The notes under the pieces: generated by a model
What the model was told of the DNA's origin: nothing
Seen by the model: only the letters and a program-made list of their open reading frames with translations
Database searches by the model: none
Source of the DNA: Acidimicrobiia bacterium
GTDB lineage: Bacteria; Actinomycetota; Acidimicrobiia; Spongiisociales; CAZKJJ01
NCBI GenBank assembly: GCA_046759765.1
Contig: JBHICV010000006.1
Location: 1 to 37,729 of the forward strand
Direction of reading: 5' to 3'
Length of the DNA stretch: 37,729 nucleotides
Part shown: positions 3,256-6,244 of the stretch, piece after piece
Position numbering within the stretch: the stretch's first letter is position 1
How the letters are laid out: the number at the start of each line of letters is the position of its first letter
Position numbers and translations under genes: made by a program

Positions 3256-3317
3256 CCGAGCACATCGATCACGAGACGACGCTGGCCTTATTGTGAGCTG
3301 TGACGAGGGGAGTCCGA

Positions 3318-3837
3318 ATGCATAACGTAGACACGTCTGCGATCGCCGCGTCGGCTGAAGCGGCACCCTCTGATCCGAGCGAAGCCGAGCTAGCCGTTCA
3401 TCTGGAAGGCACCTGGAACGTGGATGCGAGCGAGGTTCAGTTCCAAGGAGACATCGACTTTCCGGAAGGACAAGTCACGCTCACCGCCGACTTTCCTCCT
3501 TTTCTTGGTGGCCGGGGCCGAGCACCGACACCGTTGGCCTATTGCTTCTACGGCGCCATGTGCTGCTACGGATCCACCTTCGCCACCCAGGCGGCTATGG
3601 CCGGGGTCCCCATCGAGGCGGACAATCGCGCTAGATCTCGGAGTCGATTTCCGTGCCGCGCTCGCTGTCGAGCAGGTCACCCCGCTATCCGAGTTTCGAT
3701 TCGAAGTCGAGATCCGTACCTCCGCCTCAGACGAGCAGGTTGCCGAAGTGAAGCGCCTGACCGACGAGCGATGCCCCGCTATCTGGGCGATGGACAACCC
3801 GGTGCCCTATTCGACGGTGGCGCGGAAGGTTGACTGA
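3318..3837 (+). CDS. OsmC/Ohr-family protein, frameshifted at about 3621
   Basis: ADFPPFLGGRGRAPTPLAY..G...CC lies in one frame. TIALDLGVDFR...ERCP, carrying the second Cys, lies in the adjacent frame. ATG at 3318 follows GGGGAG. Confidence 0.8.
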
Positions 3838-3841
3838 TCCA

Positions 3842-4234
3842 ATGGTGAGTCCCGCTAGACCAACGCTCCTTTACTCCGGGGGGTGAAAGTTCTGTCGAGG
3901 GGCGGCAAGGTTTGCAGCCCGCTTGGACACCGGCGAGGGGCTCGCCTTCGTCCCACTCGCCGATGACTTGGTACGGGACCTCCTGCCCGATATGACCGAG
4001 GAGAAGGCGCGCCAACATTGGCACCTGGTCATGCCTGATGGCTCGGATCTGGTCAAGGGCGAGGCCGGGATCACGCTGCTGGAGCTGCTGCCGCTGACGC
4101 GGTGGCTCGGCCATGTTCTCCGAGCGCTGAAGCTCCATCCGATCGTGGATGCCATCGACTGGTCGCTGGGTAAAGCTCGAACCAAGCTGGGCTGGTCGGC
4201 TGCGGATCTCCCTGGCCCCGAGCGGTATCCGTGA
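3842..4234 (+). CDS. DCC1/DUF393 thiol-disulfide oxidoreductase with in-frame TGA (candidate selenocysteine, UxxC)
   Basis: ATG at 3842 gives MVSPARPTLLYSGG-TGA-KFCRGAARFAARLDTGEGLAFVPL...WHLVMPDG..KGEAGITLLELLPLTRWLG. This matches the DUF393 pattern (L.YDG.C..C ... F.PL ... h.DG....G..A). The TGA is at 3884-3886. Confidence 0.8.
3900..3920 (+). promoter_or_regulatory. Candidate bacterial SECIS hairpin
   Basis: GGGCGGCAA-GGT-TTGCAGCCC has 8 of 9 stem positions paired. The G-initiated apical loop starts 22 nt after the TGA. Confidence 0.6.
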
Positions 4235-4242
4235 CGGGGCGG

Positions 4243-4271
4243 TTGCACTAACGAACGTTCGTTCGTAACAT
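4243..4271 (+). promoter_or_regulatory. SigA-type promoter of the paa operon with a TetR (PaaR-like) operator in the spacer
   Basis: TTGCAC (4243-4248), 17 nt, TAACAT (4266-4271). A perfect 14-bp palindrome AACGAACGTTCGTT lies at 4250-4263. Confidence 0.8.
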
Positions 4272-4278
4272 GTCTTCT

Positions 4279-5202
4279 ATGCAGACATGGCCCTCTCTCG
4301 CGGACTTCGAGGCGTTTCTCGACGCCGGGGGGATCGTGGAACCCGTCGACGAGATGCCGGATGAGTACCGGGATGAAGTGTTCCGGTTCATGGAGATGCA
4401 CGCCAACTCGGAGCTCATGGGCGGGCTCACTGAGCGGGACTTCATCCCGCGGGCTCCCGGCCTGCACCGCAAGCTGGCCACCCTCTCCAAGACCCAGGAC
4501 GAGATCGGTCATGCTCACCTCATCTACATGGTGGCGGCCGACCTCGGTATCAAGACCCGGGACGAGATGCTGGAAGATCTATACGAAGGGCGAACTCGCT
4601 TTCACAACGTCTTTCACTATCGCTGTGAGACCTGGGCCGACCAGGTCGCCATCGCTTACCTGGTCGACGCCGCCGCGCTGACCACCCAGCAGGCCGTTTT
4701 CAAGAAGTGTTCCTACGGCCCCTACAAGAGGATCCTTCGCCGGGTGATCGCCGAAGAGGGTTTCCATATGCGCCACGGCGAGGAGATGCTCCTCAGCCTG
4801 GCCTACGGCACCGCCCGCCAGCACCGGATGTTCCAGGAGGCGCTCGACCGCTGGTGGGAGCCGGTCATGCATTTCTTCGGGCCGCCGACCGCGAAAGACG
4901 ACAAGCTGCTCCGGTGGCACATCAAGTCAGAGCCCGCCGAGTCACTCCGCCATCGCTACGTACAGAAGTTCGTCCCGCTCTTGCTTGAGTACGGCTTCGA
5001 GGTTCCCGATCCCGATCTTCACTATGACGAGGCCGAACGCAGGTGGGTCATCGGCGAGATCGACTGGACCGCACTCAAGAAAACTCAGCAGAATGTCGGA
5101 CCCGACAGCGCCCGACGCATCGCTACCGCCCGGTCCGGGTGGGTCGACGCGGCCTGGGCCCGCCAGGCGCTCGACGCCGCCGCCGAGAGGCTGGCCGCAT
5201 GA
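4279..5202 (+). CDS. paaA: 1,2-phenylacetyl-CoA epoxidase subunit A
   Basis: HANSELMG, RAPGL.RK, KTQDEIGH, CSYGPY.R and EEGFHMRHG (di-iron EXXH motifs), then QEALDRWW. The start is set at ATG 4279 because ATG 4270 overlaps the -10 box. Confidence 0.93.
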   Translation: MQTWPSLADFEAFLDAGGIVEPVDEMPDEYRDEVFRFMEMHANSELMGGLTERDFIPRAPGLHRKLATLSKTQDEIGHAHLIYMVAADLGIKTRDEMLEDLYEGRTRFHNVFHYRCETWADQVAIAYLVDAAALTTQQAVFKKCSYGPYKRILRRVIAEEGFHMRHGEEMLLSLAYGTARQHRMFQEALDRWWEPVMHFFGPPTAKDDKLLRWHIKSEPAESLRHRYVQKFVPLLLEYGFEVPDPDLHYDEAERRWVIGEIDWTALKKTQQNVGPDSARRIATARSGWVDAAWARQALDAAAERLAA

Positions 5203-5669
5203 CAGTTGCAGCACCGACGCTGCTCGATCGGGTTCACACTGCGGTCGCCTCCGTTTGCGATCCCGAGTTTCCCAACGTCACCATCTCCCAGCTCGGAATC
5301 CTGGAGGACGTGAGTGCCTCAGACGACGGCCGGGTCGTGGTCGAACTTGTTCCCACCTTCCTAGGTTGCCCGGCCCTGGACATCATCGAGGCCGATGTTC
5401 GTAACGCAGCCGAGTCGGTTACGGGTGTTTCCGATGTCGAGGTGCGTTTCATGTCGGATCATGTGTGGACTCCCGATCGCATCTTGCCCGAGGGCCGCCG
5501 CAACCTGGCTGAGCTGACCATCGCGGTTCGCGACGACTCCCACGTCGCACTCTGCCCGGTATGCGGATCGAAGCATGTGGTGGAGAGATCCCCGTTCGGG
5601 CCAACGGCCTGCCGGGCCATTGCCTTTTGCGAGAACTGCCGGAACGCGGTGGAGGTGATCCGGCAGTGA
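5199..5669 (+). CDS. paaD: Phenylacetyl-CoA epoxidase subunit D (DUF59 plus Zn ribbon)
   Basis: V.DPEFP..I..LGI, PTFLGCPA, WTPDRI, CPVCGS, S.FGPTACRA..C..C. ATGA overlap with paaA. Confidence 0.92.
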   Translation: MTVAAPTLLDRVHTAVASVCDPEFPNVTISQLGILEDVSASDDGRVVVELVPTFLGCPALDIIEADVRNAAESVTGVSDVEVRFMSDHVWTPDRILPEGRRNLAELTIAVRDDSHVALCPVCGSKHVVERSPFGPTACRAIAFCENCRNAVEVIRQ

Positions 5670-6244
5670 CGACGAACGCACGCACTCGCAAAGAAGACGT
5701 CGTCCGTGCCGCCGGCCGGCTCTTCGCCGAGCGCGGCTTCCACGGCACTTCCATGCGGGATCTCGGCACCGAGCTGGGCCTGGAGGGATCTTCGCTCTAC
5801 TCACACATAGACGGCAAGAACGAGCTGCTGGTCGAGGTGATAACGCGCGGCGCGGCGATGTTTCAGGGCCTTGCCGACGCGGTTCTGGCGACAGACGACT
5901 CTCCCGAGCGCCAGTTGCGAGCCCTCATCGTCGGCCACGTACAGATCGTCGTTGACCACCTCGACGAGGCCCGGACGTTTCTGAACGAGGCCCGCTTCTT
6001 ACCGGAGCCCGAGCACTCGTCCGTGGTCGAGATGCGGCGCCGCTACCAGGGCGCATTCACCCAGGTCATCCAGGAAGGCTCCCGCGGGGGCATCTGGCGG
6101 CAAGGTCTCGATCCGCAGCTGGCGGCGATCTTTGTCCTCTCGGTACTCAACGCCCTTGACCGCTGGTATCGGCCGACGGGACGGCGCTCCCCGTCCGAGA
6201 TCGCGGCAGACATCTTCGACTTCGTTACGACCGGGTTGGCATGA
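5666..6244 (+). CDS. paaR: TetR-family regulator (PaaR/KstR2-like)
   Basis: AAGRLFAERGFHGTSMRDLG..LG...SLYSH..GK HTH and WYRP near the C-terminus. It is embedded in the paa operon by a GTGA overlap. Confidence 0.8.
   Translation: MTTNARTRKEDVVRAAGRLFAERGFHGTSMRDLGTELGLEGSSLYSHIDGKNELLVEVITRGAAMFQGLADAVLATDDSPERQLRALIVGHVQIVVDHLDEARTFLNEARFLPEPEHSSVVEMRRRYQGAFTQVIQEGSRGGIWRQGLDPQLAAIFVLSVLNALDRWYRPTGRRSPSEIAADIFDFVTTGLA

Follow-up and report, generated by a model that had tools for sequence, protein, structure and literature searches.

A probable selenocysteine-containing DCC1-like (DUF393) oxidoreductase read across an in-frame TGA in an Acidimicrobiia genome

The window analysed here is a stretch of 37,729 nucleotides (contig JBHICV010000006.1 of assembly GCA_046759765.1) from an Acidimicrobiia bacterium, whose genome we label G000; coordinates given without a contig name are window positions on the plus strand. 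Positions 3842–4234 carry a reading frame interrupted by one TGA, and very probably constitute an intact gene for a selenocysteine (Sec)-containing, DCC1-like (DUF393, PF04134) thiol-disulfide oxidoreductase of the thioredoxin fold, as judged from sequence and a predicted structure. A Sec-containing DCC1-family enzyme had been proposed in a first-pass annotation of the same DNA, and the proposal is now supported by a conserved TGA, by relatives with cysteine at the same position, by selA, selB and selD in the host, and by further genes of the Sec type elsewhere in G000.

An in-frame TGA at the redox motif of a DCC1-like gene

From the ATG at 3842 the frame reads MVSPARPTLLYSGG, then TGA (3884–3886), then KFCRGAARF and onwards to the terminal TGA at 4232–4234, which gives a coding sequence (3842..4234) of 130 residues matching PF04134. 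Codon 15 is the sole in-frame stop between the ATG and the terminal TGA. This candidate Sec codon takes the place of the first, attacking Cys in the family CxxC motif, and the second (resolving) residue is Cys18 in the translation (TGT, 3893–3895), the only cysteine of the protein. With read-through the motif becomes U15-K-F-C18 (UKFC), and the N-terminal redox motif of PF04134 is present in that form. The read-through protein scores 44.6 bits against PF04134 (gathering cut-off 27.8 bits), with residues 9–105 aligned to positions 1–99 of the 113 of the profile, so that the TGA lies inside the DCC1-like domain. A six-frame search of G000 with the same profile also recovered the gene above the cut-off, at 34.4 bits, while the NCBIfam search returned no model matching this DCC1-like subfamily.

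The mechanical list of open reading frames (ORFs) and the public gene calls hold a shorter frame, which starts at a TTG (3923..4234, plus strand), encodes 103 amino acids and lacks the redox motif. Exactly this truncated form is found in the public protein collection (P0002, 103 amino acids, 99% identical, from two contigs), where a word-indexed search gave two matches, both of them truncated forms. The first-pass annotation had read PTLLYSGG-TGA-KFC in frame from ATG 3842, had placed the TGA on the first Cys of the family motif and had noted that the ORF from 3923 loses the active site; the translation and the listed 103-residue ORF bear this out, and the TGA aligns with an invariant column of the family (C15, see below). 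The start at ATG 3842 is backed by the orthologue in genome G001, which has a TTG at the aligned position and shares the N-terminus xSPARPxL. A possible Shine-Dalgarno sequence, GGAAGG (3824–3829), can be read 12 nt before the ATG, a rather long spacing.

At the DNA level, Logan contigs from four samples of one hydrothermal-vent metagenome study cover positions 3884–3886 and agree there without a difference or an indel. These data are contigs, not raw reads, and two of the four samples may be the source of the assembly. G000 also has a second DCC1-like gene (C177:831-1136, plus strand), which belongs to another subfamily and is a Cys form (FDDECGFC).

Conservation of the TGA column among orthologues

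Pairs of TGA and Cys at this column, which the first-pass annotation had put forward as a check, were found in related genomes, with the protein conserved before and after the codon. When 61 related genomes were searched in six frames, the protein was recovered in five. Three of these have one TGA (asterisk) at the matching column, namely G000 (LLYSGG*KFC), G042 (LIYAGD*KFC, 47% identity) and G001 (LIFADG*RFF, 35%), and the other two, which are distant forms, have Cys (G040, YDASCPLC; G056, FDGDCGLC). Further G042-type assemblies with TGA (L021 and L022, both metagenome contigs) came from scans of metagenome and genome collections, as did a fourth lineage with TGA, G423 (LIYAGG*RFC), and three Cys forms, L023 (CPFC), L024 and L025 (both CRFC). 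The G042-type UKFC motif with its TGA is therewith present in three separate assemblies (L017/L026, L021 and L022). Three of the 401 genomes in a class-level sample contained the subfamily at E <= 1e-5, two of them new: G252, with Cys at the column (CKFC), and G403 (L030), in which both Cys columns are TGA (L*KF*, that is UKFU).

The TGA column is retained in four Acidimicrobiia lineages at 35–47% identity, and the protein is conserved on either side of it. The 14 residues before the TGA follow a common pattern among orthologues, xSPARPxL(L/I)(Y/F), which indicates that the part upstream of the TGA is coding. In an alignment of 70 sequences (A3), one column alone is invariant, C15, with which the TGA aligns; the Cys18 column is at least 90% conserved, with Phe in G001 and TGA in G403. 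The closest relatives of the G000 form are the CxxC proteins P0007–P0009, with up to 49% identity for P0007, which fall in the same well-supported clade (see below). The placement of the TGA in the DCC1-like gene is far beyond chance.

The orthologue (L018, 1337-1438, minus strand) in G001, a genome of the same family, has the motif URFF, with TTT (Phe) in place of the resolving Cys. This is a Sec-only active site, seen in one assembly.

Selenocysteine machinery and stop codon usage

G000 is a metagenome-assembled genome (MAG) of 2.73 Mb in 308 contigs, 92% complete. It encodes selA (351 bits), selB (338 bits) and selD (390 bits), all above their cut-offs, and in its selD gene (C108:6375-7298, minus strand) the known Sec/Cys site is itself a TGA (SHGAG*ACK). 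A gene for a formate-dehydrogenase-like molybdopterin enzyme (C35:139-708, plus strand) has another, at SCNRT*HAPS. The motif UHxP is given for FdhA in Table 1 of a recent inventory (PMC13188914), and NRT*HAPS fits it; the formate-dehydrogenase-like gene, like selD, is a likely selenoprotein gene. On the same contig, positions 4588-4785 give a weak FdhA-family match with one TGA (E 1e-4).

TGA is also the commonest ordinary stop of G000: of 1573 long open frames, 909 terminate with it, as does the DCC1-like gene itself. A genetic-code reassignment of TGA was rejected on the count of long frames.

Among four sister genomes with a TGA form, three (G001, G403 and G423) have a tRNA-Sec with a UCA anticodon, and in the fourth, G042 (84% complete), none scored above the cut-off. 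G423 has two different tRNA-Sec genes, C480:616-706 (76.5 bits) and C41:6040-6130 (60.4 bits), both with UCA according to ARAGORN, which represent either two copies of selC or a mixed bin. Dedicated searches recovered a selB gene above the cut-off in 10 of the 10 TGA-form genomes examined in this way; G252 (96% complete), the one Cys-form sister genome tested, gave none. In the phylum sample described below, all nine TGA-form genomes have selB at E <= 1e-65 (tables compared by reading), and TGA forms are absent from all 30 genomes that bear DCC1 but lack selB at this threshold.

Distribution of Sec and Cys forms

We searched 401 genomes of the phylum with PF04134 and obtained 98 matches in 88 genomes, nine of them with in-frame stops. 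Seven have one TGA and two have two, and all 11 stops are TGA, with no TAA or TAG. Seven of the nine were read (six fetched, and G000), whereas those of the unpublished genomes G424 and G633 were counted from table rows alone; without these two, stops are found in 7 of 96 matches. Five of the seven matches read have TGA at the first Cys column (G000, G490, G110, G548 and G079), and the other two (G698 and G615; L041 and L042) have it at both, corresponding to UxxU.

With HMMER, 1.84 billion cluster representatives yielded 570 matches at E <= 1e-3, and the best 150 were inspected. The motif region is covered by 119 of these: 115 have CxxC, two have W and one Y at the first column, and one is motif-less. 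A further 30 of the best 150 begin within the profile, past the motif, many of them with M or V in place of the L that full-length forms have in RLD. Judged from the proteins alone, most of these 30 are probably due to the same truncation of the gene call as in G000. A cluster look-up placed some truncated forms on contigs of 2.6–46 kb. In the two representatives with W (P0022 and one other; GGWPFC and GTWRFC), this residue stands exactly at the Sec/Cys column; the codon may be TGG, or a TGA to which a gene caller working with another code assigned Trp.

A quick maximum-likelihood tree was calculated from 62 rows, 11 of them Sec forms, with the motif stops treated as gaps. Well-supported branches are starred in this tree, and 25 of its 59 inner branches are weak. 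G000 lies in a starred clade of four Sec and three Cys forms. The tree needs five Sec/Cys changes, of which at least three are forced by starred branches. Tentatively, and with rather less than even probability in our judgement, the DCC1-like proteins could form a widespread selenoprotein family with repeated Cys/Sec exchange that is missing from the catalogues searched. Such exchange may be easy if the conserved Ala-Ala...Val-Ala codons that follow the motif already encode a hairpin in the Cys forms, which would then amount to a pre-adapted Sec insertion sequence (SECIS). The family would include the two-Sec UxxU forms and the UxxF form of G001, and the latter would need an external thiol.

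Predicted fold and proposed mechanism

An AlphaFold2 model was built on the 70-sequence alignment, with a predicted local distance difference test (pLDDT) score of 95.4 and a predicted template modelling (pTM) score of 0.88. The model contains strand beta1 (8–11), a helix (16–28), beta2 (35–38), beta3 (61–63), beta4 (69–71), a helix (72–82) and further helices from 84 to 119, with an overall beta-alpha-beta ... beta-beta-alpha topology. Since the model places helix 1 at 16–28, following beta1 at 8–11, residue 15 is predicted to cap this helix, like the attacking Cys of thioredoxin-fold CxxC proteins. The best neighbours among solved structures are all of the thioredoxin fold (GST N-domains, Trx, Grx, NrdH and PDI), and the matches are weak (best Foldseek E 0.03, best VIA Z 5.6); Foldseek against the PDB gave nothing at E <= 0.001, and no solved close relative was found.

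The following sequence of events is proposed from these data. As the ribosome nears the UGA, SelB-GTP with Sec-tRNA(Sec) would bind a hairpin at 3893–3929, and Sec would be inserted at 3884–3886 in place of the action of release factor 2. In the predicted fold, Sec15 would cap helix alpha-1 at its N-terminus, within a beta1-alpha1-beta2 thioredoxin-like core, and would make the nucleophilic attack on the substrate, which may be a disulfide, a sulfenate or a peroxide. The intermediate would then be resolved by Cys18 through a selenenylsulfide.

A candidate SECIS hairpin downstream of the UGA

In the E. coli fdhF gene, the bacterial SECIS (bSECIS) is a stem-loop that lies within the coding region a short way 3' of the UGA, with a small apical loop that begins with G. 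A candidate hairpin of this kind is found at 3893..3929 (plus strand) in minimum free energy structures, with a lower stem TGTC/GACA. Its upper stem, GGGCGGCAA-GGT-TTGCAGCCC, spans 3900–3920, and the apical loop GGT (GGU in the RNA, 3909–3911) lies 22 nt after the UGA, a distance within the range of bSECIS models. The first-pass annotation had described the upper hairpin and its G-first loop at these positions, and RNAfold both reproduces and extends it, from 3900–3920 to 3893–3929.

Six orthologues (G000, G042, L022, G423, G001 and G548) were compared. Across them, the 11 proposed pairs hold in 84.8% of the cells, against 30–48% when the partners are slid by 1–3 columns, and all six apical loops begin with G (GGU, GUU, GUU, GUC, GUC and GGU). 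The hairpin is compatible with a bSECIS rather than demonstrated to be one, and SECIS function would be its proposed role. Downstream of the UGA of the G000 selD gene, a 7-bp stem with a GUC triloop is found at 33 nt. The UxxU form of G403 has a different hairpin, of 14 bp with the loop CUG, which encloses the second UGA.

Locus and neighbouring genes

The DCC1-like gene lies downstream of a gene for a sigma-70 region-4 protein, and starts 4 nt after the stop (3835–3837) of an OsmC-like frame, a spacing that suggests co-transcription with this frame. The OsmC-like gene (3300–3837, plus strand) is split between two frames. The N-terminal half is in the frame from 3300 (…GGRGRAPTPLAYCFYGAMCCYG…AGVPIE), the C-terminal half is in the frame 3424..3837 (PF02566 positions 40–97, E 0.002–0.003), and the switch occurs near 3625–3635. 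Contigs of three samples have no indel there, so that the split is in the DNA itself and reflects either a programmed frameshift or a pseudogene. Four further OsmC genes of G000 are intact.

Downstream, the region 4270–5669 (plus strand) holds a PaaA/PaaC-family gene (PF05138, E 4e-69), which is followed by ORFs at 5043–5669 and 5561–6244, and this neighbourhood looks ordinary. Comparison of five loci revealed no conserved operon across the lineages. The neighbours include FAD amine oxidase/Fer4, ECF sigma/MMPL, ArsR-rhodanese and methyltransferase/MFS genes, and since the neighbourhoods differ between lineages, the gene context points to no particular substrate.

Weighing of the evidence and alternative explanations

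Several observations weigh against a Sec-encoding gene, and they concern mainly the tRNA and the hairpin. Of the Sec genes that the first-pass annotation had proposed to look for, selA, selB and selD were found in G000, and tRNA-Sec was not. The best RF01852 match in this genome scores 46.6 bits (cut-off 47) and is a tRNA-Leu according to ARAGORN, which lists 47 tRNAs and none for SeC. In addition, the tRNA-Sec genes that G001, G423 and G403 carry, used as blastn queries, had no full-length match in G000, and Rfam detected no tRNA-Sec at the selA, selB and selD loci. We regard the missing tRNA as weak counter-evidence, because the MAG is 92% complete and distributed over 308 contigs. The base rate of selB is also high, with 262 of 401 genomes (about 64%, unpublished genomes included) positive at E <= 1e-65, so that the link between selB and the TGA form is modest support only, at about p 0.02 with relatives that are non-independent. 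In the single assembly of the G001 orthologue, the second Cys of the motif is absent (URFF).

As for the hairpin, its position is conserved in the six orthologues, but the covariation is weak: there is one compensatory pair only (AU to GC in G548), and the covariation score is reached by 39 of 500 shuffles. The stability is also unexceptional (z −0.69; 50 of 200 dinucleotide shuffles fold as well or better), and across the Sec forms the energy z ranges from −1.7 to +1.1. Rfam gave no match on 3780–4020 at E <= 10. Cys forms retain 4–9 of the 11 pairs, against 8–11 in the six aligned Sec forms, and because the hairpin is partly present in Cys forms, it may derive in part from the conserved Ala-Ala...Val-Ala codons. 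Finally, the split OsmC-like neighbour leaves some probability to local gene decay.

The last point bears on the explanation that the gene is a pseudogene, in which a TGC or TGT to TGA nonsense mutation inactivated a Cys-type DCC1-like gene within a decaying locus. The broken OsmC-like gene next to it, the fact that TGT or TGC becomes TGA by a one-base change, and the tRNA-Sec missing from the MAG would all fit this explanation, but a decaying gene would not be expected to keep the TGA at 35–47% identity in an intact frame with both flanks conserved and no other stop. Nor does decay account for the stops in the nine DCC1-like matches, which are TGA in 11 of 11 cases and, in those read, sit at Cys columns only, or for the confinement of TGA forms to selB-bearing genomes. 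We therefore consider a pseudogene quite improbable. The TGA could also be a true stop, the product being a 103-residue protein started at TTG 3923 or later, with codons 1–14 as a short upstream ORF. Gene callers give exactly this product, and the 30 of the best 150 cluster representatives that start past the motif resemble it, although the latter are better explained as the same miscall. Against a true stop, conservation at the protein level extends over KFCRGAARFAARL (from the TGA to 3923) as well as over the 14 residues preceding the TGA, the AlphaFold2 model requires beta1 and helix 1, both missing from the short form, and by reading there is no Shine-Dalgarno-like sequence before 3923. 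There is, in our estimate, very little chance that translation ends at codon 15.

A sequencing or assembly error, or a decoding of the UGA other than as Sec (a reassigned code, or near-cognate read-through with Trp or Cys), is the remaining explanation. G000 is a short-read MAG with a word depth of about 4–9x, and W occupies the column in 2 of the 119 motif-covering representatives, whether as TGG or as a TGA called as W. Yet the separately assembled contigs of four samples agree at 3884–3886, independent G042-type assemblies carry the TGA too, TGA closes 909 of 1573 long frames and the DCC1-like gene itself, and G000 possesses both a machinery dedicated to Sec and two Sec genes of classical families. 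Either event appears extremely unlikely. An intact gene with Sec at codon 15 is, on this balance, the explanation that we strongly favour.

Significance and relation to known selenoproteins

Selenoprotein genes are routinely mis-annotated, and the public call at this locus is accordingly a 103-residue fragment without the active site. If the DCC1-like gene encodes Sec, the little-studied DCC1/DUF393 family gains a strong hint to its function, with Sec at the attacking position marking a real catalytic redox centre. One more thioredoxin-fold entry would be added to the inventory of prokaryotic selenoproteins, and metagenomic selenoproteome counts would improve for Acidimicrobiia and other Actinomycetota. 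The natural UxxC, UxxU, UxxF and CxxC variants also allow a comparison of Sec and Cys chemistry. The gene represents no new kind of mechanism.

The first-pass annotation had doubted that DUF393 is a classical selenoprotein family, and rightly so, since the Sec form is unlisted in the catalogues searched. A 2026 inventory (PMC13188914), which describes itself as the most comprehensive, comprises 119 prokaryotic selenoprotein families or subfamilies, and a term search of its main text for DCC, DUF393 and PF04134 gave no occurrence. The same terms are absent from the main text and four supplements of deep-Sep (PMC12013277), from the main text and part of one supplement table of BSepDB (PMC13326102), and from the main text of the GOS paper (PMC2398784). 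A full-text literature search pairing selenoprotein or selenocysteine with DUF393, DCC family or DCC1 returned nothing relevant, and no title listed in the DUF393 literature is related to selenium.

Arabidopsis DCC1 and Bacillus YuxK (COG3011) are Cys-type members of PF04134. With the Cys-type DCC1-like/DUF393 proteins the G000 form shares the domain, the position of the (Y/F)DGxCxxC-type motif, the predicted beta1-alpha1 thioredoxin-like core and the C-terminal helices, and it differs from them in the candidate UGA-encoded Sec at the first motif residue and in the hairpin after the UGA. At the RNA level, the hairpin resembles the E. coli fdhF-type bSECIS and that of G000 selD in being a stem-loop within the coding sequence with a small G-first loop (GGU here, GUC in selD), but it has neither sequence similarity to them nor an Rfam match, and its structural support is statistically weak.

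Sec-containing UxxC proteins of the thioredoxin fold are given in Table 1 of PMC13188914, which lists thioredoxin (PF00085), glutaredoxin (PF00462), DsbA-like (PF01323) and thiol:disulfide interchange (PF13098) proteins, as well as a Prx-like thiol:disulfide oxidoreductase with UxxC or UxxU. The DCC1-like proteins have in common with these selenoproteins the replacement of the attacking Cys by a probable Sec at the start of helix 1, the coexistence of Cys homologues and the occurrence of UxxU variants (G403, G698 and G615). In contrast, the G000 protein belongs to another Pfam family, PF04134, and has extra C-terminal helices, and it would add to the thioredoxin-fold UxxC selenoproteins a DCC1-like form.
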